A stretch of 64,000 nucleotides of DNA from Thermoanaerobaculia bacterium (GTDB lineage Bacteria > Acidobacteriota > Thermoanaerobaculia > Multivoradales > UBA5704): positions 1,255 through 65,254 of the forward strand of contig DATBAW010000161.1 in the NCBI GenBank assembly GCA_036271335.1. The letters run 5' to 3'. The notes beneath the pieces were generated by a model. That model ran no database searches, was not told the origin of the DNA, and worked only from the letters and a program-made list of their open reading frames with translations. Below, piece after piece: positions 7,999 through 64,000 of the stretch; within the stretch, counting starts at the first letter, position 1, and each line of letters opens with the position of its first letter. The translations under genes were made by a program, and so were the position numbers.

Positions 7999-8075
7999 CT
8001 TGCTGCTCTCCCACTTGTGCTCCAGCGCGTCGATCCAGCCGCGCGGGATGATCTTTAGAAACCGGCATGTCAAGG

Positions 8076-10170: not shown

Positions 10171-10178
10171 CGGCTCTC

Positions 10179-34200: not shown

Positions 34201-36127
34201 CGCTCGCCGGTGCCGGCTCGGCGGGGGCCGCGAGATCGAGGGCGCACGCCCCGACCGGCAGAGCCAAGCCAAGGGGACCGCGGTGGATCACGGCCGCCGG
34301 CTCGGCGGCCGCCAGCAGGGCCGCCAAGCGTTCGGCCGGCGCCGTCGGATCGAGCGGCAGGCAGGCGCCGCCGGCCTTCCAGACGGCGAGCAACGCGACC
34401 GGCAGGTCCGCCGTGCGGTCGAGCAGCAGGGCCACCCGCGACTCCGTTCTCACGCCGCTGGCGCGCAGACGGCCGGCCAGCGCACCGGCACGGCCGTCGA
34501 GCTCGCCGAAGCTGAGCGTCTCGCCGGCCACGGTGAGAGCTAGGGCGTCCGGGGTGAGGGCAGCCTGGGCAGCGAAGCGCGCCGGCACCGTCCAGTCCGG
34601 AACCCGATCGCCGAGGCCGGCAGCGCCGCTCCATTCGGCGAGCGCCTGGTGGCGGGCCGCGGGGGCAAGCACCGGCAGGGCCGAGAGGGGGAGGTCCGGA
34701 TCGGCCGTCATCGCCGCGGCCTGGAGGAGGAGGAGCTCGCAGAGGCGCTCGACGGAGGCGGGGTCGAACAGATCGGCGTCATATTCGAGTGCGCCCGCCA
34801 AGCTCTTGCCGTCGTCGAACAGCGACAGCATCAGGTCGTAGCGGGCGATACCGTCGTAGGCGTCGACCGTCTCGAAGGTGACGCTGGCGAGATCCGCGTT
34901 CCTTTCCTGGGTGTCGAGGACCTGGACGAGGGTCTGGATCACCGGCTGCCGGCTGGTGTCGCGCGGCGGCTGAATCGCCTCCACCAGCTTGCCGAAGGGG
35001 AGGTCCTGATGCGCGTAGGCGCCGAGCGCCGACTGGCGGACGCGCGCCAGCAGCTCGCGGCAGGCAGGGTCACCGGCGAGGTCGAGCGGGAAGGCGACCT
35101 GGGTCAGGAAAGTGCCGATCACCGGCTGGATCTCGGGCCGGTTGCGGTTGGCGTTGTTGGCGCCGAGGACCAGCTTCTCCTGGCCGGAGCAGCGGTGAAG
35201 GAGAGCCGCGGTGGCGGCGAGCACGATCATGAACAGGGTGGCTCCCTCCTGGCGCGCGAGGGTCCGCAGCCCCTCCGACAGCTGGCGGGAGGCACGCAGG
35301 CGCCGCTGCCCGCCGCGCATCCGCATCACCGCCGGACGCGGCCGGTCGGTGGGGAGGTCGAGCGCCAGTGGGTAGCCGTCCAGCCGCTCACGCCACCAAG
35401 CCACCAGATCGTCGAGCACCTCGCCCTGGAGCCACTCGCGCTGCCAGACCGCGAAGTCCGAGTACTGGACGGGTGGCTCCGGCAGCACCACTGCCGTGCC
35501 CGCCGCGCCGGCGATGTAGAGGGCGCCGAGCTCGGCCCAAACGATCTGGAAAGAGAGGTAGTCGACCACCAGGTGGTGCGCCGTCAGCAGGCAGACATGG
35601 TCCTGCGGTTCGAGGCGGAGCAGGATGGTACGCACCAGCGGCCCGCGCTCGAGGTCGAAGGGCTCGGCGGAGTCGAGGCCGACCAGCCGCTGTGCCTCGG
35701 CCCAGCGCCGGCCGCCATCCAGCCCTGAAAGGTCGACGCAGGCGAGCCGCTGTCGCCTCGCCGCCGCCACCCGCTGCACGGCGCCGCCGCCGACCTCCGG
35801 AAAGGTGGTCCGCCATGCAGCGTGGCGGCGCACGATCTCGTCGAGCGCCCGCTCCACCACCGGCAGCGAGAGAGGCCCGCGCATGCGGCTCGCCGCCGCG
35901 ATGTTGAGCCCCGCCCCACTCGGCCGGAGCTGCTCCATGAACCAGTAGCGCTCCTGGTCGAGGGAGAGCGGCCAATCGCCCTCGCCGGTGACGCCACTCG
36001 CCCGTCGGACCGGCGGTGGCACCGCCGGCTGCCGGACGCGCGCGGCCCGCCGCTGCTGCTCGCGCAGCTTTTCGAACAGGGCCCGCTGTTCCGGGGTGAG
36101 GGCGGAGATCCGGCCGTCGAGACTCAT
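28271..36127 (-). CDS. NRPS-E: C-A-T | C-A(nMT)-T (2618 aa)
   Basis: Head C motif AHHLVVDY at 35558-35581; second [11 protein letters not shown] ~32362-32392. A3 motifs [11 protein letters not shown] ~34118-34170 and [11 protein letters not shown] ~30918-30965. Carrier Ser codons 32963-32965 and 28526-28528. ATGA overlaps at both ends (36124-36127, 28271-28274). Confidence 0.95.
28845..30035 (-). other. N-methyltransferase domain inserted in the A domain of NRPS-E module 2 (interrupted A domain)
   Basis: About 395 aa inserted before ...[29 protein letters not shown] motif [13 protein letters not shown] (~29790-29835) and [16 protein letters not shown] (~29270-29310). Paralogous to the insert at 17950-18940. 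Boundaries approximate. Confidence 0.8.
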
Positions 36128-39100
36128 ACAGCTCCTTCTTCCGTGAGCGACTCTCCATCGAGCAGAGCCTGCAGGTCCTGGTCCGAGAGGTCACCGATGT
36201 CAGCCAGCACCTGGGAGACGAGGCGATCCGCCAGGTCGCGCAGGTCGGTGGCGTCGAACACCATCTGCAACGGCATTTCGATGCCGTGGCGGTCCCGCAG
36301 GCGCGCCGCCAGCTGGGTAGCGAGCAGCGAGTGCCCCCCGAGGTCGAAAAAGTTGTCGCGCATGCCCACCCGCTCGAGGCCCAGCACCTCGGCGCACGCC
36401 GTAGCGAGGTGCTCCTCGACCGGGGTCGCCGGGGCCAGGTACTCCTTCGCCCGGGCGGCGGCAGGATCGGGATCGGGGAGCGCCCGCCGGTCCAGCTTGC
36501 CGTTCGCGGTCAACGGCAGCCGGTCGAGGAGCACGAACGCCGCCGGGATCATCGGCTCCGGCAGAACGGCGGCAAGGTACCGCCGCAGTGCCGCCGCATC
36601 GAGCCCCTCCACCGGCTCGACGGTGACGTAGGCGGCCAGCCGCCGGTCGCCGCCTGCGGCCGGCCGGGCGACGACCACCGCCGTACGCACCTGGGGGTGA
36701 CGGGCGAGCGCCGCCTCGATCTCCCCCAGCTCGACGCGGAAGCCGCGGATCTTGATCTGCCCGTCGCGGCGGCCGAGGAACTCCAGCACGCCGTCCGGCC
36801 GCCAGCGGACGAGATCCCCCGTCCGGTAGAGGCGGCCGCCCGGCGCCGCGGCGAACGGATCGGGGACGAACCGCTCGGCGGAAAGGGCCGGGTGGCCGAG
36901 ATATCCCCGCGCCACCCCTTCTCCGCCCGCGAAAAGCTCCGCCCAGACCCCCACGGGCACCGGTAGCAGGTCGCCGTCGAGCACATGGACGCGCGTGCCC
37001 CGGATCGGCGTGCCGATCGGCACCGTCGTCGCCAGCCGCTCGTCGGCCAGATCCGCCGCGGTCATCGCATGGCAGGTTGTGAAGGTGGTGTTCTCGGTCG
37101 GGCCATAGCCGTTGATCAGCGTGCAGCCGGGAAGCCCCTCCAGCGCGCGGTGGACGACCGCGGGCGCCAGCACGTCGCCGCCGGCCAGCAGCTGGCGCAA
37201 CGGGCGCAGCGCCTCTAGCCGCTCCTGCACCATCTGATGGAAGAGCCCCGCGGTCAGCCAGAGCGTGGTCACCCGATGGTGGGCGATCGCCGTTGCCAAC
37301 TCGTCGAGCGCCGGGCGGCGGCCGGGGAAGACCGCCAGGCGGCCGCCGTTGAGCAACGACCCCCAGATCTCGAAGGTCGAGGCGTCGAAGGCCACGTTGC
37401 CGAGTTGCAGGACCGTCTCTCCAGCGCCCAGGGCGGCGCAACCGGCGGTCGCCAGGTGCGCGACGTTGCCGTGGGTCACCTCTACCCCCTTCGGCTCCCC
37501 GGTCGAGCCCGAGGTATAAATCACGTAGGCCAGCTGCTGGGGAGAGATCTCGGGGAGATCCGCCGGCTCGCCGTCCGGCCTGTCGGCACCATTCAGATCG
37601 ACGAGGACGGCCCCGGCGTCAGCCAGAAGGAAGCGCCGCCGCTCCGCAGGCAGCTCGGGATCGAGGGGGAGGTAGGCGCAGCCGGCCTGGAGGATGCCCA
37701 GCAGGACGGGGATGAGGGCGACCGAGCGTTCGGCCGCGACAACGATCCGCGACTCCGGCCCTGCCCCCCCGCGGAGCAGCCGGCCGGCCACCCGACGGGC
37801 ACGGCGATCGAGCTCGGCATAGGTGATTTCCTCGTCGCCGCAGACAACGGCCACGGCCTCCGGCGTGCGCGCCACCTGAGCTGCGAAGAGGGAGGGGACG
37901 GTCTTGGTGGCCTCACCGCCGGCACCGCTCCACTCGACCGTCACCTGGTGGCGCTCGGCCGTGGAGAGGAAGGGTTGGCGGACCGGCAGCTCCTCGGGAT
38001 CGGTGACGAAACCCTCCAGGTGGGTCTCCAGGTGGGCCAGCAGACGTTGGACCGTGGCCGGGTCGAAGCGGCGGTCGGCGATGAGCCGAAGGCTGAGATC
38101 GCCGCGCGCCACCACCGTCAGGGTGAGCGGATAATTGGTGCGCTCGGTGAGGGCGACGCCGTCGAGCCGCAACCCGGTCAGCCGGTCGGAGTCGGCCGGT
38201 TTGAAGGGATAGTTCTCGAACGCCAGGAGGCTGGCGAACAGCGGCTCGCCCGCCGGCAGGTCGACAAGCTTCTGGATCTCGGCCAGCGGCGTCCATTCGT
38301 GCTGGCGCAGCTCGCTCTGGGCCGCCTGGAGGCGCGGCAGCCAGGCGGCCACCGGCTCGGCCACCGACACCTCCACCCGCACCGGCACCGTGTTGATGAA
38401 CAACCCCACCATCGTCTCGACTCCCGGGAGCTCGGGGGGGCGACCGGAGACCACTGCGCCGAAGACGACGTCAGACGCCTGTGCGTAGCGCGCGAGCAGG
38501 AGCGCCCAGGCCCCCTGCACCAACGTGTTGAGGGTTACCCGCAGGCGTTGAGCCAGCGCCTCCAGATCGCGGGTGAGCGGCGCCGGCAGCACGGCCGTCC
38601 ACTCGTGATAGTCCTCAGGGCGTCCGCCAGGCGTACGGTCGAAGGGCGCCGGGCGGTCGAACGGAACCGGGGTGGGCGCCGTGAAGCCCGCCAGCAGGCG
38701 CCGCCAGTAGCTCACCGCCTCGGTCTCGTCGCGAGTCGCCAGCCAGGCGATGTAGTCGCGGTAGGGGCGCGGCGTCGGCAGCGAGGCCTCGCCGCCGCCA
38801 ACCGCCGCCGAGTACAGCGTGAGCACCTCGTTGAGCAGGAGCGGAAAACACCAGCCATCGAACAGGATGTGGTGCGTGCTCCAGACCAACCGGCGCTCCG
38901 CCTCGCCCGTACGCACGACGGCGAGCCGCAGCAGGGGCGCTCGGCTGAGGTCGAAGCCGCGCGCGCGGTCGGCGGCCAGGAGCGCGCGCCAGCGCGTCTC
39001 TACGTCCGCGGCGGGAAGGGTCTGCCAATCCTCGACGGTAAAGGGCACCTCGGCGGCGCGCCGCACGAGCTGCAACGGCCGCTCGACCCCCTGCCAGAGG

Positions 39101-42100
39101 AAGCCGGTACGCAGTGCCGAATGACGCTCGACGGCCCGCTGCCAGGCGGCGGCGAAGGCGGCCTCATCCAGCGCCCCGGAAAGCCGGGCGGTGAGCTGCT
39201 CGAAGTAGAGGTCGGCACCGGCACCGGCGAGCTGACTGTGGAAGAGCATTCCGGCCTGCATCGGAACCAGGGGATAGAGGTCCTCGACGGTGCGGTCGTC
39301 GCCCAGCAGCCGGTCGAGCGCCTCCTGATCAAGGCCGGCGAGCGGGACGTCGGAAGGGGTGAGCCCACCCGCTTCCGGCGACCGGCAGTGGTCGACCAGC
39401 GCCGCGATCTCGGCGACGAAGCCGCTCGCCAGCCGCTCGGCAGTGGCCGGGAAGTGGCGCTCCGGATCGTAGGTCCAGCTCACGCGCAGCAGGCCGTCGA
39501 GCACTAGCGCGTCGATCGCGAAGCAGGGGCCTCCTCCCGCTACCTCCCCCGCGGTGCCACGGACCGCCTCGGGGGCAAAGGAGAAGAGGTCGCCCTCCCC
39601 CGCCGCCGCGTCGAGCCGGCCTAGATAGTTGAAGGAGACCTGCGGCGAGGCGAAGCCTTCGGCTCCCTCCTGGGCGGCGAGATAGCGCAGCAGGCCGAAG
39701 CCCAGGCCGCGCCGGGGCACCGCCCGCAACCCTTCCTTGACCGCCCGGATAGCATCCCTGGGGCTATCTCCAGGCGGCAGCGTCAGGGCGACCGGGAAGA
39801 TCGTGGTGAACCAGCCGACGGTGCGCGACAGGTCGACATCCGGGAAGATCTCCTCCCGCCCATGCCCTTCGAGGTCGACCAGCAGCGTGCGCTCGCCCGT
39901 CCAGGTGGCGAAGGCACGGGCGAGCGCGGCCAGCAGCAGGTCATTGACCTGGGTGCGGTAGACCTTCGGCACCTCCTGGAGGAGCGCCCGGGTCTCCTCG
40001 AATCCCAGCTCGACGGCAAAGGTCGCACGGGCACCACCACCGCCCGGCAGGTCGCGCGGCAGCGGCGGCAGGGCGGCAGGGAGCGCCAGCCACCGCGCGA
40101 GCTCGGCCGCGATCTCCGGCGAGCGGGCGAAGCCGGTGAGGAGCTCCGCCCAGCGCTTCCAGGAAGTGGTCTTCGCCGGCAGCGCGAGCCCCCGGTAAGC
40201 GGCGGTGAGATCCTCCAGCAGCACGCGCCAGGAGACGCCGTCGACCACCAGGTGGTGAGCGGTGAGGAGCAGGCGGTCCCCCCCCTGGCCAGCGCTCCGG
40301 TGGAACAGGGCGGCGGTGAACAGGGGGCCCCGCGCAAGGTCGAGCCCGGACTGGAGCTGCTCGGCGGCCGCTTCGAGAGCGGCGCCGGACCGGTCCGGCG
40401 ACAGGAGGGTGAGGTCGATCTCGATCAGCGGTAGCGATGCCGCGGGCGCGTGGACCTGCCGCCAGCCCTCGCCGTCCCGCAGGAAGCGCAGACGCAGCGC
40501 GTCGTGGTGGGCGGCGACGTGGGCGAGGGCGGCCGCGAAGGGGGCGCCGGCGAGCCGCTCGTGAGGGACCAGCAGCACCGCCTGGTTGAACCGCCCGGGC
40601 GTCCGCCGTCCCTCGTCGAAGAAGCGACGCTGGATCGGCGTCAGCGGTGCCTCTCCCTGGACGGCCCCCTGATCCTCCTCCGGACCCGCCCCGCCGCCAG
40701 CAACGGCGGCCAGCTCGGCGACCGTCTGATGCTCGAAGAGCTGCCGGGGGGTGAACAGGAGACCCTCGCGCCGAGCCCGCGCCACGATCTGGATGCTGAG
40801 GATCGAATCGCCGCCGAGCTGGAAGAAGTTGTCGTGGATCCCCACCCGTTCGATGCCGAGCACCTCGCGCCAGATCGCAGCCAACCGCTCCTCCTTCAGG
40901 TCGCGGGGGAGGGCGGCGCCGGCGGCCGCGCGCACCGGCGGCCGGGGCGCGGGGAGCGCCCTGCGGTCCACCTTGCCGTTGGCGTTGAGCGGCAGCGCGG
41001 CAAGCGGCACGAAGAACGTGGGGACCATCGGCTCCGGCAGGCGGGAGCGGAGGAAGGCGCGGAGGGCCTCCGGCTCCGGCAGGGCATCGCCGGCCACGTA
41101 GGCCACCAGTTGGTTCTCCCGGCCGGTCACCGCGCGCGCCACCACCACCGCCTCCCGCACCGCTGGATGGGCGACGAGGGCCGCCTCGATCTCCCCCGGC
41201 TCGATGCGGAAGCCGCGCACCTTGATCTGGTGGTCGATGCGGCCGAAGAACTCCAGCAGGCCGTCCGGCCGCCAGCGGACCAGGTCCCCCGTGCGGTAGA
41301 GCCGCCCCCCCACCGCGGCAGCGAACGGATCGGGGATGAACCGCTCGGCGGTCAGAGCCGGGCGGTTCAGATAGCCGCGGGCGACACCGTCGCCGCCGGT
41401 GAGCAACTCCCCCCAGACGCCTACCGGCACCGGCCACAAGCCGGTGTCGAGCACGTGGACGGTCGTGCCCTGGATCGGCCGGCCGATCGGCACCGTGGTG
41501 TCCCATCCGTCGGCGTCCCGCATCGGGAAGCAAGTGGTGAAGGTCGCGTTCTCCGTGGGGCCGTAACCGTTGACCACCGTGCACCCCGGCAGGCCGGCCA
41601 GGGCCTGCCGCACGTGCGACGGCGACAGCACATCTCCACCGGCGAGCAGCTGGCGCAGGGGGCGCAACCCCTCCAACCCCTCGCTCACCATCTGGTGGAA
41701 GAGGCCCGAGGTCAGCCAGAGCGAGGTCACCCCGTAGCGGTCGATCGCGTTCGCCAACTCGTCGAGCCCCGGGCGATGGCCGGGGAAGAGCGCGAGGCGG
41801 CCGCCGTTGAGAAGCGGCGCCCAGGTCTCGAACACCGCGACGTCGAAGGCAAGGTTGCCGAGTTGCAAAAAGGTCTCATCCGACCCCATGGCCGCCCAGC
41901 GGGCCTCGCGCACCAGGCGCACCACGTTGCCGTGGGTCACCGCCACCCCTTTCGGCTGGCCGGTCGAGCCCGAGGTGTACATCACATAGGCGAGCTGGCT
42001 GGCGTCGACCGCGGGGAGCGGCACCTCCCCATCACCCTCGTCCTCCGGATCGAGCAGGTCGAGCGGGACGGCGCCGGCGTCGGCGAGCAGGAACTGCCGC

Positions 42101-43905
42101 CGCTCCGCCGGCAGATCCGGATCGAGGGGGAGGTAGGCGCAGCCGGCCTGCAGGATGCCGAGCAGGCCGGGGACCAGGGCGATCGAGCGCTCGGCCGCGA
42201 TGGCGATCCGCGACTCGGGCGCGACGCCCAGCCGGCGCAGCCGGCCGGCCACCCGGCGGGCCTGGCGGGCGAGCTCGGCATAGGTCAGCGACGCGTCGCC
42301 GCAGACCACGGCGACCGCATCCGGCGCGCGGATGGCCTGCGCGGCAAAGAGGCCGTGGATCGTCGGGGCGACGGGAGGGGCGAGGGCGGTGTCGTTCCAC
42401 TCAGCCGCCAGTTGGTGACGCTCCGCCGCGGAGAGGACCGGCAGCTCCGACAGGTGCTGGTCCGGATCGGAGACTGCCGCTACGGCCAGGAGCAGGAAAC
42501 GCTCGACGCGACGGATGGTGGTGGCGGCATCGAACAGGTCGGCATCGTATTCGAGCCCTCCTTGCAGTTGGTCGGGGTACTCGAACACCGTCAGCATCAG
42601 GTCGTAGCGGGCCTTACCGTCCCAGGCGTCGAGCGGCTCGGAGACGAACTCACTGCTCGCCGCGGGAGATTGGGCGGAATACTGGGAGGAATACTGGACG
42701 TCGAGCACCTGGACGAGGGTCTGGATCAGCGGCTGGCGGCTGGGATCGCGCTCGAGGCCGATCGCCTGGACGAGCTGGCCGAACGGCAGATCCTGGTGGG
42801 CGTAGGAGCCGAGCGCCGACTGGCGGACGCGCGCGATCAGCTCGCGGAGCGTGGGATCGCCGGCGAGATCGATGGGGAACGGCACCTGGGTAAGGAAGCA
42901 GCCGAGCACCGGCTCGATCTCCGGCCGGTTGCGATTGGCATTGTTGGCACCGAGGACCAGCCGCTCCTGGCCGGAATCGCGGCAGAGGAGGCCGGCAGTC
43001 AGCGTCAGCACGAGCATGAACAGGGTCGCTCGCTCCTGGCGGGCGAGGCTCCGCAGTCCGTCCGCCAGCTCGGCGGAGGTGGTGAAGGCACGACGGCCGC
43101 CGCGCATACGGAGGGTTGCCGGCCGGGGTCGGTCGGTCGGCAGGTCGAGGTCTACCGGGAAACCGGCCAGCCGCTCGCGCCACCAGGAGGTCAGCTCGTC
43201 GAGGACCTCGCCCTGGAGCCAATCGCGCTGCCAGAGGGTGAAGTCCGGATATTGCACCGGTGGCGGCGGCAGCGCCGGCCGCTCGCCGCGGGCGAGGGCG
43301 TCGTAGACGGCCGTCAGCTCCCCCCAGACGATCTGCGACGAGATCCAGTCGGTCACCAAATGGTGGACGGTGAGCAGGCAGACGTGGTCCTCGGCCGCCA
43401 GGCGCACCAGGCTGGCGCGCACCAGCGGGCCGCACTCGAGGTCGAAGGGGGCCGCCGACTCCTCCATCACCAGGCGCAGGATCTCGCTCTCGCGGCGCGC
43501 CGCCGGCAGGCCGCCGAGATCGATCCGCCGGAGCGGCAGGGGACGGGGGGCGACCACCCGTTGCACGGGCCGGCCGTCGACGGTGGGGAAGATCGTCCGC
43601 CAGGCGGCGTGCCGGCGCACGATCGTGGCGAGCGCCGCCTCGATCCGCTCGGCTGCGAGACGGCCACGCATGCGGGTAACTGCCGCGATGTTGAGGCCCG
43701 CGCCGCCCGGATAGAGCTGCTCCATGAACCAGTAGCGCTCCTGGTCGAACGACAGCGGCCAGTCTCCCTCCGCAGTGGCACCGCTCACCCGCGGCACCGG
43801 CGGCGGCTTGAGCAGGCGCCCGGCCCTCTGCTGCTTCTGGCGGAGCGCCTCGAACAGGGCCCGCTGCTCGGGAGCGAGGGCGGCGAGACGGTCGATGACG
43901 CTCAT
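36124..43905 (-). CDS. NRPS-D: C-A-T-E | C(DCL-type)-A-T (2593 aa)
   Basis: Head C motif VHHLVTDW 43345-43368; A3 YTSGSTGQPKG ~41947-41985. The carrier has an E-partner-type GGDSILSIQ signature (Ser 40804-40806). E domain PLTPIQRRFF ... AHHLVVDGVSWRVL (~40225-40265). Next C begins DLYPLVPMQAGMLFH and has THHILFDGWC (~38845-38880), as expected downstream of an E domain. A3 ~37485-37525; carrier Ser 36328-36330. Confidence 0.95.
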   Translation of the reverse strand: MSVIDRLAALAPEQRALFEALRQKQQRAGRLLKPPPVPRVSGATAEGDWPLSFDQERYWFMEQLYPGGAGLNIAAVTRMRGRLAAERIEAALATIVRRHAAWRTIFPTVDGRPVQRVVAPRPLPLRRIDLGGLPAARRESEILRLVMEESAAPFDLECGPLVRASLVRLAAEDHVCLLTVHHLVTDWISSQIVWGELTAVYDALARGERPALPPPPVQYPDFTLWQRDWLQGEVLDELTSWWRERLAGFPVDLDLPTDRPRPATLRMRGGRRAFTTSAELADGLRSLARQERATLFMLVLTLTAGLLCRDSGQERLVLGANNANRNRPEIEPVLGCFLTQVPFPIDLAGDPTLRELIARVRQSALGSYAHQDLPFGQLVQAIGLERDPSRQPLIQTLVQVLDVQYSSQYSAQSPAASSEFVSEPLDAWDGKARYDLMLTVFEYPDQLQGGLEYDADLFDAATTIRRVERFLLLAVAAVSDPDQHLSELPVLSAAERHQLAAEWNDTALAPPVAPTIHGLFAAQAIRAPDAVAVVCGDASLTYAELARQARRVAGRLRRLGVAPESRIAIAAERSIALVPGLLGILQAGCAYLPLDPDLPAERRQFLLADAGAVPLDLLDPEDEGDGEVPLPAVDASQLAYVMYTSGSTGQPKGVAVTHGNVVRLVREARWAAMGSDETFLQLGNLAFDVAVFETWAPLLNGGRLALFPGHRPGLDELANAIDRYGVTSLWLTSGLFHQMVSEGLEGLRPLRQLLAGGDVLSPSHVRQALAGLPGCTVVNGYGPTENATFTTCFPMRDADGWDTTVPIGRPIQGTTVHVLDTGLWPVPVGVWGELLTGGDGVARGYLNRPALTAERFIPDPFAAAVGGRLYRTGDLVRWRPDGLLEFFGRIDHQIKVRGFRIEPGEIEAALVAHPAVREAVVVARAVTGRENQLVAYVAGDALPEPEALRAFLRSRLPEPMVPTFFVPLAALPLNANGKVDRRALPAPRPPVRAAAGAALPRDLKEERLAAIWREVLGIERVGIHDNFFQLGGDSILSIQIVARARREGLLFTPRQLFEHQTVAELAAVAGGGAGPEEDQGAVQGEAPLTPIQRRFFDEGRRTPGRFNQAVLLVPHERLAGAPFAAALAHVAAHHDALRLRFLRDGEGWRQVHAPAASLPLIEIDLTLLSPDRSGAALEAAAEQLQSGLDLARGPLFTAALFHRSAGQGGDRLLLTAHHLVVDGVSWRVLLEDLTAAYRGLALPAKTTSWKRWAELLTGFARSPEIAAELARWLALPAALPPLPRDLPGGGGARATFAVELGFEETRALLQEVPKVYRTQVNDLLLAALARAFATWTGERTLLVDLEGHGREEIFPDVDLSRTVGWFTTIFPVALTLPPGDSPRDAIRAVKEGLRAVPRRGLGFGLLRYLAAQEGAEGFASPQVSFNYLGRLDAAAGEGDLFSFAPEAVRGTAGEVAGGGPCFAIDALVLDGLLRVSWTYDPERHFPATAERLASGFVAEIAALVDHCRSPEAGGLTPSDVPLAGLDQEALDRLLGDDRTVEDLYPLVPMQAGMLFHSQLAGAGADLYFEQLTARLSGALDEAAFAAAWQRAVERHSALRTGFLWQGVERPLQLVRRAAEVPFTVEDWQTLPAADVETRWRALLAADRARGFDLSRAPLLRLAVVRTGEAERRLVWSTHHILFDGWCFPLLLNEVLTLYSAAVGGGEASLPTPRPYRDYIAWLATRDETEAVSYWRRLLAGFTAPTPVPFDRPAPFDRTPGGRPEDYHEWTAVLPAPLTRDLEALAQRLRVTLNTLVQGAWALLLARYAQASDVVFGAVVSGRPPELPGVETMVGLFINTVPVRVEVSVAEPVAAWLPRLQAAQSELRQHEWTPLAEIQKLVDLPAGEPLFASLLAFENYPFKPADSDRLTGLRLDGVALTERTNYPLTLTVVARGDLSLRLIADRRFDPATVQRLLAHLETHLEGFVTDPEELPVRQPFLSTAERHQVTVEWSGAGGEATKTVPSLFAAQVARTPEAVAVVCGDEEITYAELDRRARRVAGRLLRGGAGPESRIVVAAERSVALIPVLLGILQAGCAYLPLDPELPAERRRFLLADAGAVLVDLNGADRPDGEPADLPEISPQQLAYVIYTSGSTGEPKGVEVTHGNVAHLATAGCAALGAGETVLQLGNVAFDASTFEIWGSLLNGGRLAVFPGRRPALDELATAIAHHRVTTLWLTAGLFHQMVQERLEALRPLRQLLAGGDVLAPAVVHRALEGLPGCTLINGYGPTENTTFTTCHAMTAADLADERLATTVPIGTPIRGTRVHVLDGDLLPVPVGVWAELFAGGEGVARGYLGHPALSAERFVPDPFAAAPGGRLYRTGDLVRWRPDGVLEFLGRRDGQIKIRGFRVELGEIEAALARHPQVRTAVVVARPAAGGDRRLAAYVTVEPVEGLDAAALRRYLAAVLPEPMIPAAFVLLDRLPLTANGKLDRRALPDPDPAAARAKEYLAPATPVEEHLATACAEVLGLERVGMRDNFFDLGGHSLLATQLAARLRDRHGIEMPLQMVFDATDLRDLADRLVSQVLADIGDLSDQDLQALLDGESLTEEGAV
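39330..40655 (-). other. Epimerization (E) domain, the only one in the window
   Basis: PLTPIQRRFFDE..., HHLVVDGVSWRVLLEDL, ...FNYLG. It is preceded by a GGDSI-type carrier and followed by a C domain with the MQxGMLFH/HHILFDGW signature. Boundaries approximate. Confidence 0.8.
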
Positions 43906-45386
43906 GCGGCCTCCGGGAACGACGCGAGCGAAGGGAGCTGCGACAGCCGCACCTCGGGGCTGGCGACGACGCAGTCGACGATCCGGCGGAACAGGCCGAG
44001 CCAGCGCTCGACGGTCGCGCGGTCGAGAATGTCGGCGTTGAACTCCACGGGTCCGGTGAAACCCAGGTCGTCGTAGTCATAGAGGCCGAACATCAGGTCC
44101 CACCGCGAGTTGCCGTCGAAGAGCGGCACCGCCTCCGAGTCGACGTCCTCGCCGCCGCCGTGGCTCTGGCCAGCGAGGACGAGGAGCAGCACCTGCACCA
44201 CCGGATTGCGGGCCGGATCGGGCTCCGGCTCCAGGACGTCGACCAGCTTGTCGAACGGCATGTTCTGGTGGGTATAGGCAGCGAGAGAGGACCTCTTCAC
44301 TCGGGCCAGCAATTCGCGGAACGTCGGATCGCCGCCAAGATCGACGGCGAACGGTACCTGGGTCAGAAACTGCCCCAGCATCGGCTCCAATTCCGGCCGC
44401 GGACGATTGGCGCTGTTCGAGCCGACGACCAGCTTTTCGCGGCCGGTGAGGCGGAAGAGCAGCGCGTCGACGACGGCGAGCAGGGCCATGAAGGTCGTCA
44501 CCCCCTCGCGCCGGGCGAGGGCCCGCAGACGGTGCGCGGGCTCGGGGCCGGAGCTGAAGGGGATCATGCCGCCGCGCTGGCTCTGCGCGGGCGGGCGGAT
44601 GCGATCACCGGGAAGATCGAGCACGAGCGGAAACCCGGCAAGCTCGCGGCGCCAGAACTCCGTGTAGTCGTCGAGCGCCTCGCCGCTCCACCACTCGCGC
44701 TCCCAGACCGCGTAATCGGGGAACTGCAGCGCCGGCTCGGGGTAGGGGCTCGGAGCGCCGACGCGGGCCGCCTCGTAGAGTCCCATCAGCTCCTGGAAGG
44801 CGATCTGGAACGTGATCCAGTCGGTCGCGATGTGATGCACGGTGAGCAGGCAGAGGTGCTCCAACTCGTCGGTGCGGACGAGAGCGGCGCGCACCAGCGG
44901 CCCGTGCTCGAGGTCGAAGACCGCGCGGGTGCGGTCGAAAAGATCGCGGCGCCCTTCGGTCTCGCGACGCTCCACCGGCAGGGCCGTGAGGTCGATCACG
45001 GCGAAATCGACATCCGCCACGTCGCCGGCCACCCGCTGAACCGGCCGGCCATCGACCACCGGGAAGGTCGCTCGCCAGGCGGCATGGCGGCGGATGATCT
45101 CGCGCAAGGCCGCGATCAGCGCCGGCACCCGGATCTCACCGTGCATGCGGCTGGCGGCGTCGACGTTCCAGGAGACCAGCCCCGGGTTCTCGCGGTGCAT
45201 GCGCCAGAGCCTCTCCTGGTCGATCGCCAGCGGCCAGTCGCCGGCCGCGGTGGGACCGGTGACCCGGGGGACCGCCGGCGGCAGGAGGAGCTTGGCGGCC
45301 GCGCTCTCTTGCTGCCGGCGACGCAGCGCCTCGAACAGGGCGCGCTGCTCCGGAGTGAGCGCCGAGAGGCGCTCGGTGACGCTCAA
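43902..45386 (-). CDS. Free-standing condensation (C) domain protein, 494 aa, no A or T domain
   Basis: Start assigned to TTG at 45384-45386 (TTGA overlap with the PKS stop; GGGAG 7 nt upstream). With this start the N-terminus (L/M)[24 protein letters not shown] aligns with the N-termini of NRPS-D ([25 protein letters not shown]) and NRPS-E ([25 protein letters not shown]). The tracked 700-aa ORF (to 46004) is a run-on overlapping the PKS. Active-site motif VHHIATDW at 44817-44840. The stop overlaps the NRPS-D ATG (ATGA 43902-43905). Confidence 0.85.
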   Translation of the reverse strand: MSVTERLSALTPEQRALFEALRRRQQESAAAKLLLPPAVPRVTGPTAAGDWPLAIDQERLWRMHRENPGLVSWNVDAASRMHGEIRVPALIAALREIIRRHAAWRATFPVVDGRPVQRVAGDVADVDFAVIDLTALPVERRETEGRRDLFDRTRAVFDLEHGPLVRAALVRTDELEHLCLLTVHHIATDWITFQIAFQELMGLYEAARVGAPSPYPEPALQFPDYAVWEREWWSGEALDDYTEFWRRELAGFPLVLDLPGDRIRPPAQSQRGGMIPFSSGPEPAHRLRALARREGVTTFMALLAVVDALLFRLTGREKLVVGSNSANRPRPELEPMLGQFLTQVPFAVDLGGDPTFRELLARVKRSSLAAYTHQNMPFDKLVDVLEPEPDPARNPVVQVLLLVLAGQSHGGGEDVDSEAVPLFDGNSRWDLMFGLYDYDDLGFTGPVEFNADILDRATVERWLGLFRRIVDCVVASPEVRLSQLPSLASFPEAA

Positions 45387-48300
45387 AGGGCCGCTCCCAT
45401 CTCGGCCAGCCTGAGAGCCGCCTCGTCGGGCGATAGCCCCTCGATGAGGGCCAGAAGCGCTTCGAGATCCTCGGCGCTCTCCTCGCCCTTGGCGCGGCCG
45501 ATCAGCTTCGCCAGCTCGACGATCGTGGGCGCCTCGAACAGCGCCGTCACCGGCAGATCGGCCTCGAACAGGGTGCGGATCTGGGTGACCATCTGGATCG
45601 CCAGCAGGGAGTGGCCACCGAGCTCGAGGAAGCTGTCCTCGACGCCGATCGGCGCGATCCCGAACAGCTCTTCCCAGAGGCCGGCGAGCCGGCTCTCGCG
45701 CTCGTTGCGCGGCTCGACGTAGGCGGCGCCGAGCCCCCCCGGCCGCTCCGCTTTCTCGCCGCGATGCAGCGGCGCCATCTGGGCGAACAGGCTCTCGGCG
45801 GTGATGGAGTCGGTCTCGGCGATCATCGCCGGCAGATCGCGCGACGCCACGATCACCTGCGGCAGAGGGGAGGCGAGCAAGCGGTGCAACGCCTCGCCGC
45901 TCCGTCCGGCAGTGACGCCCCAGGCGGCGACGTTCTTCTGGATCTCCTCCGGCTGCAGGCCGCCGCCGGCGCCAGCCGCCGCGGCGATCAGCCACCCCTC
46001 CCACTGGTAAGGGTCCCAGTGCGCGGCAACGGTGAAGGGGCCCTCACCGCCGGCCCGCCGGCGGGCCACGGCGTCGAGAAAGGCGCCGGCGGCGGCGATG
46101 TCGACCTGGCCAAGGCCGCCGGTGAACGCCAGGGTGGAGGACATCAGCAGCACGAAGGCGGGGGGCTCAGGGTCGGAGTCGAAGGCCGCCAGCCAGGCTT
46201 CGGCGCCCAGCGCCGCAGGGTCGATGGCGGCGCGCAGGGCCTCGGCGGTCTTGAGCTGGATCAACCCGCCGGTGAACGCCCCCGCGGTGTGGAACGCTCC
46301 CTGGAGTGGACCGAGGGCGGCGCGGACCTGGGCCAGCGCCGTCGCGGCGCCTCCCGGCTCGGCGCGGACCAGCAGCAGCCGTTCGCGCTCCTCCGCCCCG
46401 AGTCCAGAGAGCCGACGGACCGCCGTGCCGAGCACGTCAGCTCCCGGCGGTACCGCCGGCAGGCCCTCCCAGCCGTCCCAGCGCTCGGGCGGTGGGAACT
46501 GCGGCGGCACCACCAGCGCAACCCGCGCATCCAGGGTCCGCAACAGCCGCTCGGCGAGGAGCACGCCGGCCCCATGAACGCCGTCGGTGATCAGGTAGGC
46601 GCCGCCCGGGACCAGGCGCGAGGCCGCCGTCTCCCCCAGGCGCACCCGCTCGAAGGAGCGCACCCAGCGCCGCCGGCCCCGAAAAGCGACCGCGACGTCG
46701 GCCGGGCCACCTGCGACCAGCGACGCTTCGGCCAGGAGCTGGTCGATCAGCCGTTCCTCCGCGGCCGAGCCGGCGGCGACGGGGACGACGTCGATGGCGG
46801 CGCAGGTCAGCCGCGAGGACTCCTGGTGGATCACCTTGACGGCGCCGAGGACGGTGGCCTTGCCCGGGTGGACCGGATCGCCGTCTGTCACGTCGTGCAG
46901 GCCGTCAGCCACCATGGCGAGATGCACCGGCGAGCTTTCGCCGCCGATGGCGGTGACCGCCTGCTCGAAAAGGATCAGACTGAGCAGCCCGCTCGTCTGC
47001 GCCGGCGCGAAGCCGGGGTCGGCGCCGGTCACGCCCCAGAGGTGGAGGACCCTGCCGGGAAGCTCGCCAGCGGTCCGCAGGTGCTGAAGAAGGCTGTCGT
47101 AGTCCTGACGCCGGTCGGGGTCGACGGTGAAGGCCTCGCCGTCGGCCTGGAACCCGGTACCGGCCGCGACGGTCGAGACGGGAAGCCCCTCGCGCCGCAG
47201 CCGCGCGGCAATCCGCTCGCCCAGGCCGCCGCGGTCGAGGAAGATCAGCCAGCCGCCCGTCAGGGACACGTCTCGCGCGAGCGGCGCCTGCTTCCAGGCC
47301 GGTGCCCAGAACCAGTCCGCGAGATCGGCCTGCGCCGCCGCGACAGGAGAAGCCGCAGCCGTCACGGAGCCCATGGCCGGCGGCTCGATCCAGCAGCGCT
47401 GGCGCTCGAAGGGATAGGTCGGCAGAGGCACTCGTCGCCGGCGCTCACCGGCATACAGCGCGTCCGGGTCGAAGGGCACACCGGCTACCCAGAGCCGGCC
47501 GAGGGCGTCGAGCAGAAGCGCGAGGTCCGATCCCTCCTCGCTCGCCCGCCGCAGGGTGCCGACCGCGATCCGCCCTGCTCCCCCCTCCGGTTGCTGGCGC
47601 ACCAGGGTGGCGAGCGTTCCCCCGGGACCGACCTCGACCATCACGCGGTCGGGATCGCGCAGCAGCTCGGCAAGCCCTTCGGCGAAGCGCACCGGCTGCA
47701 CCATGTGGCGCGCCCAGTAGCCGGGATCCTGGAGGTCGGCGGCGGTGATCCAGGTGCCGGTGACGTTCGACAGGTAGGGGATTTTCGGTGCCCCCACTCG
47801 CGCCGTGCCGGCGAGCGCGGTCAACGTCGCCGCGGCCGGCTCCAGCATCGGCGTGTGGAAGGCGTGGGTGGTGGTAAGTCGCAGGCAGGTCACTCCCCGC
47901 CCGCCGAGCTGACGCTCGAGCTCCGCCACCTCGTCCTCGGGACCGGCGGCGACAGAGAAGTGTGGCCCGTTGGTAGCGGCGACGGCGAGCGCTCCCTTGA
48001 GCAGCGGCCGCAGGTCGGCCTCGGGGAGCGGCACGGCGAGCATCGCCCCGCCCGGGAGCTCCTGGATCAGCTTCGCCCGCCGCGCCACCAGGGCGAGAGC
48101 GTCCGCGAGCGAAATCGCCCCCGACAGGCAGGCGGCGACATACTCTCCCAGGCTGTAGCCGATCATCGCCTGCGGCTGGATCCCCCAGCCCATCAGCAGC
48201 CGGGCGAGCGCATATTCGACGACGAAAAGGATGGGCTGCGCGTGCTCGGTACGGGCGAGGCGGCGGGACGCCTCGTCCCCAGGCTCGGCGCCGCGGCGGA

Positions 48301-50087
48301 GCATGGCGCGCAGATCGGTCTTCCGCTCGGCCCCCGACTCGCCCGCAGGGCGCGGCGCCGCCGAAAGCAGGAGCTCGCGGACGTCGGCTCCCAGGTGCGC
48401 CCGCAGGATCTCCGCGCAGCGGTCCACCTCGATCGCGAACGCCGGCTCGGCATCGTAGAGCTCGCGCCCCATGTCCACATAGTGGTCGCCGAGACCGGGA
48501 AAGAGGAAGACCACCGGCCGCTGGCCGCCACCGGAGACGCCGGTGACGCCGCGCCCGTCCCGCAGCGAAGCGACGGCGTCCGCGACGTCTCTGCAGACCA
48601 GGGCCCGGCGGTGGCTGAACGCCTTGCGTCCCACCTGCAAGGTAAACGCGGCGTCGGCCAGATCGAGGTCCCCGGCCTCCAGCCGGCCGGTCAGCCGGTC
48701 CGCCTGCGTGGCGAGCGCCGTCGGCGTGCGCGCCGAGAGGGTCAGCAGCTGCCACGGACGCGACGGACCGGAAGGTTGCTGTGTTGGCGGCTCCTCCAGC
48801 ACGACATGGACGTTGGTGCCGCCGAGACCGAACGAGCTGACTCCCGCGCGGCGGGGAGAGAGGTCCACCGGCCAGGGTGTCGCTGCGGTCGGCACATAGA
48901 AGGGCCCGAAGTCCACCTGCGGATTGGGACGCGCGAAACCGACGCTGGGGGGGATCGTGCCATGGCGCAGCGCCAGGACGGTCTTGATCAATCCGGCCGC
49001 GCCGGCCGCGGCGTTCAGGTGGCCGAGGTTGCTCTTGACCGATCCCAGCGCGCAGGGGCCGCCGCCATGCCCGGCCTGAGTGAAGGCCTGGCGCAGGGCC
49101 GAGACCTCGATCGGATCGCCGAGAGCGGTGGCGCTGCCGTGCCCCTCGACGTACCCGAGGGTGTCCGGCTCGATCCCGGACATGAGCAGGGCCTCGGCAA
49201 TCACCTCGGCCTGCCCCTCGATGCTGGGAGCAGTGAACCCCACCTTGGCCGAGCCGTCGTTGTTGGCCGCCGAACCGAGGATGACGGCGTGGACGGTGTC
49301 CCCCGAAGCCAGGGCGTCCGCCAGACGCTTGAGCACCACGACGCCCGCCCCCGTCCCCGGCACCGAGCCGCCGGCCCCGGCGTCGAAGGACCGGCAGTGG
49401 CCGTCTGGCGAGGAGATGCTCCCCTCCTGGTAGAGGTACCCCTCGGCGACCGGCGCGCTGATCGACACGCCGCCGGCGACCGCGAGATCGGACTCGCCGG
49501 CGAGCAGGCTCTGGCAGGCCATGTGGACGGCCATCAGGGCGGTCGAGCAGGCGGTCTGCACCAGGGTGCTCGGGCCACGCAGGTTCAGCTTGTAGGAGAG
49601 CCGGGTGGCGGCGAAGTCGCGGTCGTTGAGGATCAGCACCTGGAGAGTACCGGCCTTCCGCAGCTCCTCGACGTTCGGCAGCAGGTTCGACAGCAGGTAC
49701 GAGCTGGTACCCGAGCCGACGAACACCGCCGCGCGGGCGCCGCCGCGCTCGGGATCGCAGCCGGCGTCCTCCAGCGCCTCCCAGGCGCACTCGAGCAGCA
49801 CCCGGTGCTGGGGATCCATCAGCTCGGCCTCGCGGGGCGTGAAGCCGAAGAAGGCGGGCTCGAACAGCTCGACGCCCGCGGCCACCCCCTTGGCGCGCAC
49901 GTAGGCGGGATCGCCCACCAGCGCGGGATCGGCTCCCGCCGCGATCAGCTCCTCCGCGCTGAAGAAGGAGATGGACTCGACGCCGTCGCGGAGGTTCCGC
50001 CAGAGCTCGTCGACCGAGCCGGCGCCGGGAAACCGGCCGGACATGCCGACGACGGCGATGCCCTGGGCCGGGGAGGTCTCAATGGAA

Positions 50088-50095
<8 letters not shown>
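45383..50095 (-). CDS. Type I PKS module: KS-AT-KR*(inactive)-carrier (1570 aa)
   Basis: KS: GIAVVGMSGRFPGA, TACSTAL (Cys 49547-49549), EGHGSATALGDPIE, KSNLGHLNAAAG. AT: GYSLGE (Ser 48152-48154) and HAFH (~47846-47866). KR-like region 46000-47330. Carrier [12 protein letters not shown] (Ser 45608-45610). The ATG at 50095 overlaps the NRPS-A stop (ATGACTGA). Confidence 0.95.
45480..45700 (-). other. Carrier domain of the PKS module with a PCP-type GGHSL signature
   Basis: [44 protein letters not shown]; Ser codon 45608-45610. Boundaries approximate. Confidence 0.8.
46000..46615 (-). other. KR catalytic subdomain with degenerate cofactor and catalytic motifs (KR0)
   Basis: The Rossmann motif reads YLITDGVHGAG (46565-46597) instead of the GxGxxG-type LITGGTGxLG. 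The Lys position reads P-A-A-L-G-A (Ala codon 46214-46216). The Tyr/Asn motif reads GQVDIAAAG (Ile codon 46097-46099) instead of GQxxYAAAN. The Ser (MSS) is retained. A psi-KR-like structural subdomain lies upstream (~46620-47330). Confidence 0.7.
47400..48520 (-). other. Acyltransferase (AT) domain, malonyl-type motif
   Basis: VVFLFPGLGDHYVDMG, GYSLGEYVAA (Ser 48152-48154), HAFHTPM (HAFH is associated with malonyl-CoA selection). Boundaries approximate and include the post-AT linker. Confidence 0.8.
48790..50070 (-). other. Ketosynthase (KS) domain, Cys-His-His triad intact
   Basis: Cys in VQTACSTALMAVHMA (49547-49549), His in VEGHGSATALGDP and KSNLGHLNAAAG; ends GGTNVHVVLEE (~48791-48823). 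Confidence 0.85.

Positions 50096-64000
<13,905 letters not shown>

Follow-up and report, generated by a model that had tools for sequence, protein, structure and literature searches.

What does a condensation (C) domain do when it stands alone between a polyketide synthase (PKS) and a non-ribosomal peptide synthetase (NRPS) that already begins with a C domain of its own? The question is raised by a stretch of 64,000 nucleotides from a Thermoanaerobaculia bacterium (contig DATBAW010000161.1 of assembly GCA_036271335.1, positions 1,255 to 65,254 of the forward strand; the whole of this stretch is called the window below), in which two C domains follow the carrier of the PKS and only one acceptor module is on offer. 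C domains are usually annotated as formers of peptide bonds, and an extra one is often dismissed as a relic. The comparison presented here indicates that the lone domain, which we call Cfree, descends from the head of an NRPS and appears to be a functional and dedicated partner of the PKS module next to it. The cluster itself is, as judged from its genes, a giant lipopeptide assembly line in which Cfree sits between the polyketide module and the next peptide module. The genes and domains on which the argument turns are the following (A, adenylation; T, carrier; E, epimerisation; KS, ketosynthase; AT, acyltransferase; KR, ketoreductase, with KR0 for an inactive one).

43902..45386, minus strand: gene for Cfree, with a TTG start (translation, Pfam, homologues, AlphaFold2 (AF2) model and Foldseek)
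45297..45386, minus strand: N-terminal helix of Cfree, a putative docking element (alignment; AF2 helices at residues 3-8 and 12-30)
45383..50095, minus strand: PKS, KS-AT(malonyl, HAFH)-KR0-carrier-docking helix (Pfam; motif survey of 39 orthologues)
43905..36124, minus strand: NRPS-D, C-A-T-E-C-A-T
42415..43905, minus strand: head C domain of NRPS-D, with the motif HHLVTDW and a canonical acceptor-carrier patch (F at +3 and L at +7 of helix α1)

The open reading frame (ORF) at 45386..43902 (minus strand) codes for 494 amino acids without internal stops, and its sole Pfam match is Condensation (PF00668; 246.9 bits over residues 50-487, the cut-off being 30.6). The first-pass annotation, which had described a protein consisting of a C domain only, was thus right on this point. 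On the minus strand 44817-44840 codes exactly for the motif VHHIATDW, residues 183-190. At 45383-45386 a minus-strand TTGA unites the TTG start with the TGA stop of the PKS, and the TGA stop of Cfree overlaps the ATG of NRPS-D in an ATGA at 43902-43905 (minus strand), as the proposal of translational coupling on both sides had it. Cfree stands in the middle of the line, after at least four NRPS modules and the PKS. Its closest paralogue within the window is the first C domain of NRPS-D (476 bits in phmmer, 48.5% identity), which had been recognised as a paralogue from the first, followed by the head C domain of NRPS-E (47.8%) and the internal C domains (35-41%); the identity falls to 25.7% for the C domain after the E domain and to 23.6% for the E domain itself.

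A protein search found more than 110 free-standing homologues of about 480-500 amino acids with 60-86% identity, mostly from metagenome-assembled genomes (MAGs) of Thermoanaerobaculia; a subset is about 600-610 amino acids long and bears an AMP-binding fragment. A locus scan using one genome per species gave 51 non-redundant loci, spread over Thermoanaerobaculia, Holophagales and further Acidobacteriota, in which the domains were mapped with the window's own domains as queries. A KS-AT-KR-carrier PKS ends directly upstream of Cfree in 47 of 50 assessable loci, and an NRPS starting C-A-T begins directly downstream in 44 of 48. Related lines begin with a fatty acyl-AMP ligase (FAAL) and an acyl carrier protein (ACP). 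Among the homologous genes ATG starts (19 loci) are followed in number by TTG (14) and GTG (12), and stop/start overlaps are usual across the orthologous loci (ATGA, GTGA or TTGA at the downstream junction in most), with some near-abutments. With start codons of these kinds and overlaps in most loci the TTG start is supported and a sequencing frameshift that hides a fusion is ruled out; related loci with the same gene order have a separate gene with its own start codon.

What lies downstream of Cfree is by comparison variable. The NRPS may be C-A-T-E-C... or C-A-T-C..., the motif of its head C domain may be HHLVTDW/F, HHIVSDL/M/Q or the canonical HHIVADG, and the specificity codes of its first A domain (A1) are very diverse. 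The constant unit is therefore the PKS together with Cfree. A conserved neighbouring amino acid was considered and rejected: the A1 codes are diverse, and the A domains upstream often, not always, have a Cys-like code (DLY[DNS]L[SA][LF]VWK). Because of this diversity of the flanking A domains a reaction specific for one side chain is unlikely.

The loci that depart from this order are a few with inserted genes and one truncated locus, L051, which is taken up below. In L027 (6161-9946) and L055 (2290-5844) a gene for a VWA-domain protein of about 1200 amino acids lies between the PKS and Cfree. On the 3' side of Cfree, L021 has DUF5674 and TPR genes (11478-15217) and L029 a TPR/NACHT gene (11608-14340).

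By its spread Cfree would be a widespread subtype of C domain, and the comparative data support this well. NCBIfam has no named family for it and matches it with generic NRPS models only, all far below their cut-offs. The literature that was searched turned up no precedent for stand-alone or tandem C domains adjoining PKS modules, and no product assigned to an acidobacterial NRPS-PKS. An exhaustive HMMER search against representatives at 50% identity was dominated by multi-module megasynthases, which sum the matches of their many C domains, and was uninformative on distant free-standing relatives.

The tie between Cfree and the PKS is made visible by natural fusions. The two share one ORF in L032 (KS-AT-KR-T-C) and in L039 (KS-AT-T-C), and in L031 a single ORF runs ...KS-AT-T-C-C-A.... 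In all three the docking helix of the PKS is kept as a linker and the N-terminal helix of Cfree is deleted in frame, and they are real fusions and not frameshift artefacts. In them Cfree is physically flanked by the PKS carrier on one side and the head C domain on the other, which is the place of the E domain in T-E-C. An apparent C-C fusion in L005 was left out of the count, since the long-read assembly there is full of frameshifts.

The PKS partner has a further constant property. The two parts of it that matter most here are these.

45386..45691, minus strand: PKS carrier (GGHSL, resembling a peptidyl carrier protein (PCP); Pfam PP-binding at residues 1469-1532) with the conserved C-terminal helix EDLEALLALIEGLSPDEAA
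46016..46603, minus strand: KR-like domain without the catalytic Lys, the Tyr and GxGxxG (Pfam KR at only 52 bits)

Among 39 orthologous PKSs the Cys and His motifs of the KS are intact, the AT carries HAFH (malonyl), the carrier is PCP-like with GGHSL, and the C-terminal helix is conserved (EDLEALLALVEGLSPEEAA). The KR is a different matter: the position of the Lys is A, R, L, Q, E or N, never K, that of the Tyr is I, L, V, A, H or E, never Y, and the Gly motif is degenerate in 39/39; these residues are the ones we assume to be catalytic from what is generally known of type I KR domains. L031 and L039 lack the KR region completely. By these motifs the KR is predicted to be inactive in all 39 orthologues, so that the β-keto group is always retained, and since the KR is dead or absent the intermediate on the carrier should be a peptidyl-γ-amino-β-ketoacyl thioester. 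Two other traits of the PKS were seen in passing: the AT of the window (45383-50095, minus strand) reads GYSLGEY compared with the usual GHSxG, with Tyr for His in 38 of 39 orthologues, and the GGHSL motif of the carrier is of the PCP type rather than the ACP type.

If Cfree were a functionless, decaying relic of a lost module its sequence should tell. Pairwise dN/dS values by the NG86 method, window against ten orthologues, are 0.19-0.28 for Cfree, compared with 0.23-0.36 (KS) and 0.35-0.60 (head C domain downstream); in DNA so rich in GC the absolute values are rough and it is the ranking that matters. Cfree is under purifying selection, with a dN/dS as low as that of the KS. The catalytic centre is retained as well, and two motifs of Cfree are of particular interest.

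44817..44840, minus strand: active site, C3 motif V183-H-H-I-A-T-D-W190, with Trp for the usual Gly (sequence)
44697..44723, minus strand: C4 motif F222-PDYAVWE-R230, with the family-specific E229 (clade residue scan)

All seven core motif regions hold invariant residues in 25 members of the family that diverge to 60% identity, among them D56 Q57 E58 R59, R100 H101, H184 H185 T188 D189 W190, P223 D224 W228 E229 R230, F340 L341 P345 F346 and D424-L431. The HHxxTDW is present in all related loci. At position 229 of the C4 motif (AVWE versus AVWQ) Cfree has E in 24/24, where every head-type sister (28/28) and every other LCL-like domain (62/62) has Q. What speaks for a relic is that Cfree has neither an A nor a T domain of its own and that some relatives carry a stub of an A domain. 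Because of the low dN/dS and the invariant motif regions the relic hypothesis is rejected, and the retention of Cfree in at least 51 loci of different species, its independent fusion to the PKS partner and the conserved translational coupling also go against it; we hold it to be almost certainly wrong. The earlier argument that an intact HHxxxD speaks against a pseudogene is borne out both by the conservation of the motif and by dN/dS.

Where Cfree comes from can be read from a neighbour-joining tree that holds 126 C-like domains, taken from the window and from 23 loci. In 200/200 bootstraps the Cfree sequences form one clade, and in 200/200 its sister group consists solely of head C domains, i.e. 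C domains at the N-terminus of their proteins. Both lie within the LCL-like domains, and the C domains that follow E domains (DCL) form a separate clade. The placement in a C-domain phylogeny, which the first-pass annotation had asked for, is therefore LCL-like and nested among head C domains. Cfree and the head C domains have the motif variants DQER, RHAAWR, HHxxxD[W/Y/F] and FLTQVPF in common, and the Arg of the C1 motif, which is an LCL feature, is found in 23/24 Cfree members (R59), with Gly in 10/10 DCL domains of the same loci. The heads of NRPS-D (42415-43905) and NRPS-E (34652-36127) make up an LCL subgroup of their own, with HHxxxD[W/Y] lacking the Gly, DQER, RHAAWR and FLTQVPF, and they begin with a near-identical helix, (L/I)(S/A)AL(T/A)PEQRALFE.

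Solved structures place Cfree in the same way. The best matches are the C domains of Txo2 and Txo1, TycC6 and DhbF; in phmmer the LCL structures lie at about 1e-71 to 1e-39 and the DCL structures (TycB1, SrfA-C) at about 1e-18 to 1e-16, and entries of the DCL, modAA, Cy and E types match much worse than LCL. The AF2 model (mean pLDDT 80, pTM 0.79) has the canonical two-lobed fold of C domains, and its top Foldseek matches are canonical C domains with TM-scores of 0.75-0.79; X domains are also among the matches. By descent, then, Cfree belongs to the LCL-like branch of the condensation-domain superfamily. One usual feature of such domains, an A-T of its own downstream, is missing: Cfree ends after the C domain, and its relatives carry at most an A stub of about 120 amino acids.

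This stub tells of the origin. It is 118-125 amino acids long, covers the A1-A2 motifs, and is mutually homologous in five loci (L002/L030, L038, L042 and L044) which are scattered over one half of the Cfree tree; the ancestor was for this reason a C-A... head, and the stub was lost repeatedly. That the stubs are recent duplicates of an A domain in the same locus was considered and rejected: they have 37-48% identity to all A domains and are no closer to their own downstream A1 than to others, so the event is old. Either a full module had been truncated to give this ancestor, or a 5'-terminal part of the NRPS gene had been duplicated in tandem; the two would look alike in these sequences. Of the idea that Cfree is the remnant of a module that has lost A-T and is kept as an adaptor, the part about its origin thus stands, with the A stub and the nesting among head C domains in favour, and the notion of a passive or decaying relic does not.

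How can a head C domain which has lost its own acceptor module be of use in front of another head C domain? The surface that receives the acceptor carrier is informative here. The complexes of FscG PCP2-C3 show the acceptor carrier docked on a hydrophobic patch, to which helix α1 contributes W2579, L2580 and V2584 and which also includes A2907 and V2908 (PMC8097023). R2577 of FscG gates the tunnel, and this residue is Arg in most LCL and Gly in DCL domains (PMC8097023). We have set R2577 equal to the Arg of the C1 motif, i.e. R59 of Cfree, which places the α1 contacts at +2, +3 and +7; this register is fixed by the Arg/Gly rule, which holds in our data, by an invariant Trp at +2 and by the arithmetic of chain offsets. 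The helix and the residues found at its positions are as follows.

45189..45221, minus strand: helix α1 / C1 motif D56-QERLWRMHR-E66 of Cfree, with the charged residues R62 at +3 and E66 at +7 and the invariant H64
Position +3 of α1: R or Q in 22/24 Cfree sequences of the tree and in 107/113 homologues; F in 27/28 head C domains; F, L, V or Y in 62/62 other LCL-like domains; F in 10/10 DCL domains
Position +5 of α1: invariant His in Cfree; mostly Glu in head C domains (20/28); mostly Asp in other LCL-like domains (54/62); mostly Ser in DCL domains (8/11)
Position +7 of α1: E or D in 20/24 Cfree sequences and in 104/113 homologues; L in 28/28 head C domains; L, I, M or V in 62/62 other LCL-like domains; Y in 10/11 DCL domains

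The head-type sisters have F or L at +3 and +7 in 28/28. In 41 E domains of related loci the residue at +3 is A, E, D, G or T and that at +7 is mostly polar. VibH, whose sequence was verified to be identical to 1L5A, reads FWQRHLA in α1 (Q, H and A at +3, +5 and +7) and has a Glu aligned with E229. By this mapping the hydrophobic patch for an acceptor carrier is lost from Cfree and still present in the head C domain of NRPS-D. Since the canonical patch is kept there, the head C domain is predicted to be the one equipped for the first carrier of NRPS-D (T1), and the puzzle of two C domains in front of one acceptor module would be largely resolved.

The opposite division of labour has to be weighed against these residues. 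Cfree might be the domain that condenses the PKS-bound chain in trans with the amino acid on T1, as a C domain specialised for β-ketoacyl donors and left behind after the loss of its own A-T, and the head C domain would then be a structural partner of A1 only. The A stub suits this, in that Cfree descends from a C-A unit directly after the PKS; Cfree still has its catalytic motifs, as well as C5, C7 and the Arg of C1; and it is the head C domains that evolve faster (dN/dS 0.35-0.60). Against it, two of the hydrophobic α1 contacts are charged in essentially all Cfree sequences and the head C domain has kept both the contacts and its HHxxxD, the acceptor specificity downstream is highly variable, and in T-C-C-A the carrier T1 could get to Cfree only by passing the C domain of its own module. 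We find this arrangement very unlikely.

The reading that we prefer is that Cfree is an in-line, catalytically competent enzyme of the C family which works without a carrier-bound acceptor on the β-keto intermediate of the PKS carrier; on the sequence data at hand we judge its chances of being right to be about even. In this scheme Cfree would take the PKS carrier with its peptidyl-γ-amino-β-ketoacyl thioester at the donor side. It occupies the usual place of an E domain, T-C*-C-A-T (C* being Cfree), with a carrier before it and the next module's C domain after it. The His-His-Asp centre, with family residues such as E229 and H64, might then process or gate the intermediate, after which the head C domain of NRPS-D would condense it with the amino acid on T1. 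With a 2-acylamino-ketone / β-keto thioester as substrate, candidate base-catalysed reactions would be the epimerisation of Cγ, a cyclodehydration that gives an oxazole-type ring, or a control of enolisation. Among the options first listed for Cfree, that of a non-canonical reaction on the β-keto intermediate fits best, with a KR predicted to be dead in 39/39, three fusions to the PKS carrier and an acceptor patch that is lost by the mapping above.

Several points weigh against this reading. The α1 argument is a mapping of motif registers onto one solved complex and not a structure of Cfree. Other motifs on the acceptor side (the C1 Arg, FLTQVPF in C5, RNP in C7) are almost as in the sisters that are competent for condensation, so an acceptor may be possible. 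By sequence Cfree is no relative of E or Cy domains (the E domain of the window is 23.6% identical to it), and it lacks their second catalytic motifs. The features that resemble VibH (Q/R at +3, H at +5, Glu in C4) suit a soluble nucleophile equally well. Finally, L051, which has no NRPS in the 10 kb downstream of Cfree, could mean that the domain terminates the chain there.

The last two points lead to another possible function. Like VibH, CroK or Bamb_5915, Cfree would join the chain on the PKS carrier to a soluble amine, alcohol or water and give a truncated or branched product, e.g. a β-ketoamide, or a methyl ketone after decarboxylation, in competition with onward transfer or in place of it. 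A free-standing domain that has lost the acceptor-carrier patch, and whose α1 (W-R/Q-x-H) and Glu229 match the aligned residues of VibH, is what such a function would call for, and L051 lacks an NRPS within 10 kb downstream. This locus (10001-21440, in a Holophagales MAG) has genes for HypF and a PolX-type polymerase after Cfree, and its PKS is split by frameshifts. It may thus be a degraded or mis-assembled cluster as well as a line that ends with Cfree, and this lessens its weight. Elsewhere 44 of the 48 assessable loci run on into C-A-T, usually with translational coupling, and the line of the window ends far downstream in T-TE (TE, thioesterase). A domain held within one polypeptide as in the T-C-C-A of L031 would be in an odd place for off-loading, and by sequence the family is LCL-like and not VibH- or starter-like. 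We therefore consider a soluble nucleophile unlikely, though worth keeping in view, and the same holds for the trans substrate among the options first listed.

It is also conceivable that the catalytic centre is of no consequence and that Cfree is an adaptor or scaffold which bridges a dimeric PKS and a monomeric NRPS, or which recruits an enzyme in trans such as the CmlA-like hydroxylase of the cluster, much as P450s are recruited by X domains. The N-terminal helix of Cfree is shared with the heads of NRPS-D and NRPS-E, to which it is nearly identical in the alignment, and the docking helix of the PKS is conserved; the acceptor patch is lost, a CmlA-like β-hydroxylase gene is found within the window, and X domains occur among the Foldseek matches. 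Known recruiter domains have degenerate catalytic motifs, however, and in Cfree HHxxTDW and the core motifs are invariant across family members that share as little as about 55% identity, with a dN/dS as low as that of the KS. A purely structural role is in our opinion distinctly unlikely.

To return to Cfree as an in-line enzyme, one may go a step further and propose a new functional subtype: an acceptor-less, in-line tailoring domain for the γ-acylamino-β-keto thioesters made by KR-less PKS modules, carrying out e.g. epimerisation at Cγ once the chain has been extended, or a Robinson-Gabriel-type oxazole cyclodehydration, chemistry not yet assigned to C domains with HHxxxD. This more specific proposal is tentative, and we would sooner bet against it than for it.

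The remainder of the line, in which all large genes of the window are on the minus strand, consists of three further genes.

63992..50088, minus strand: partial upstream NRPS, at least four modules
36127..28271, minus strand: NRPS-E, C-A-T-C-A(MT)-T (MT, methyltransferase)
28274..10179, minus strand: NRPS-F, five modules, ending in T-TE (10182-11381)

The first complete module of the upstream NRPS has three tandem PP-binding carriers, T-T-T (59868-60830, minus strand), and runs of carrier domains after an A domain are also seen in some related loci, e.g. L016. Methyltransferase domains lie inside A domains in the second module of NRPS-E (28928-30040, minus strand) and the third module of NRPS-F (17895-18962, minus strand). 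Downstream of the line a gene at 6406-8073 (minus strand) codes for a CmlA-like diiron non-heme β-hydroxylase (CmlA_N and a metallo-β-lactamase fold); the substrates of such β-hydroxylases are amino acids bound to carriers. Flanking the cluster at its 3' end are genes for an M13 peptidase (about 8110-10170, minus strand), an M28 peptidase (4125-6392, minus strand), a PMT_2-type glycosyltransferase-like protein (1502-3121, minus strand) and an M49 peptidase (27-1373, plus strand), and the peptidases and the PMT_2-type protein may have a role in maturation or resistance. Very long ORFs of up to 3704 amino acids run antisense to the NRPS genes, e.g. 51288-62402 and 28484-34543 (plus strand); they were taken for the usual artefact of GC-rich DNA and not counted as genes.

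An orphan C domain is thus conserved and selected as a partner of a PKS across a lineage of uncultured soil Acidobacteria, with a remodelled surface for the acceptor carrier. Should its role be one of tailoring or gating, the products predicted for these large lipopeptide clusters would have to be revised. C-domain classifiers would gain a subtype, with HHxxTDW, R/Q..E/D in α1 and AVWE as diagnostic residues, and it would supply a natural part for PKS-to-NRPS junctions, the T-C and T-C-C-A fusions being ready-made constructs for biochemistry.

How does Cfree compare with systems that are already known? Three classes can be set aside. The motif HHIATD in place of DxxxxD and a match to the Cy domain of EpoB of only 1.4e-10 speak against a Cy domain. 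Cfree stands in the middle of a line and not at its start with an acyl-CoA or acyl-ACP donor, as a starter C domain does. A modAA domain is at variance with a match to AmbE (7R9X) of only 1.6e-15 and with a donor that is predicted to be a malonyl-extended β-keto chain. The tandem Cy1-Cy2 of VibF is an analogy only: reportedly two domains of the C family stand in front of one A-T there and split condensation and processing between them, and Cfree and the head C domain are likewise two consecutive members of the superfamily, but both have HHxxxD where the Cy domains of VibF, acting on Thr, have DxxxxD, and their donor is polyketide-extended.

Bamb_5915 of the enacyloxin PKS (6CGO) is, like Cfree, a stand-alone C protein beside a PKS-derived thioester. 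It is said to be a chain-release C domain which docks by an N-terminal β-hairpin and terminates its pathway; Cfree matches it weakly (5e-14), has a single N-terminal helix, and is followed by the rest of its line. The X domains of glycopeptide synthetases (4TX2/4TX3; match 8.4e-46) are extra C-like domains without A-T after a carrier. They have a degenerate catalytic motif and recruit P450s, whereas Cfree keeps an invariant HHxxTDW. VibH (1L5A), the amide synthase of vibriobactin, is a free-standing C protein without a carrier-bound acceptor, and it resembles the Cfree family in the Q at +3 (R or Q in the family), the H at +5 and a Glu aligned with E229. Its reaction, the acylation of a soluble polyamine, closes one branch of the VibH pathway; Cfree is placed in line between two megasynthases, is fused in line in some relatives and belongs to a different clade of C domains, and VibH was not among the 50 PDB matches of Cfree listed at E<=1e-3.

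The closest relatives are the LCL domains (TycC6, 2JGP; Txo2, 6P1J; C3 of FscG, 7KVW), with the same fold (TM about 0.75-0.79), phmmer values of 2e-71 to 6e-39, the HHxxxD, the C1 Arg and the seven motif regions in common. Cfree departs from them in the lack of A-T, in Trp for the Gly of HHxxxDG, in Glu for the Gln of C4, in the charged α1 contacts and in forming a separate clade. With E domains the relation is reversed. By sequence Cfree is far from them (23.6% to the E domain of the window) and clusters with LCL, outside the branch of E and DCL domains, the E-specific EGHGRE-type motif is absent, the aligned segment of Cfree being GSNSANR, and the C domain that follows Cfree is not of the DCL type. 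By position and surface the two are alike: like an E domain, Cfree comes after a carrier and before the next C domain, has HHxxxD and no acceptor carrier, and has given up the hydrophobic contacts at +3 and +7 of α1, where E domains have polar or small residues.

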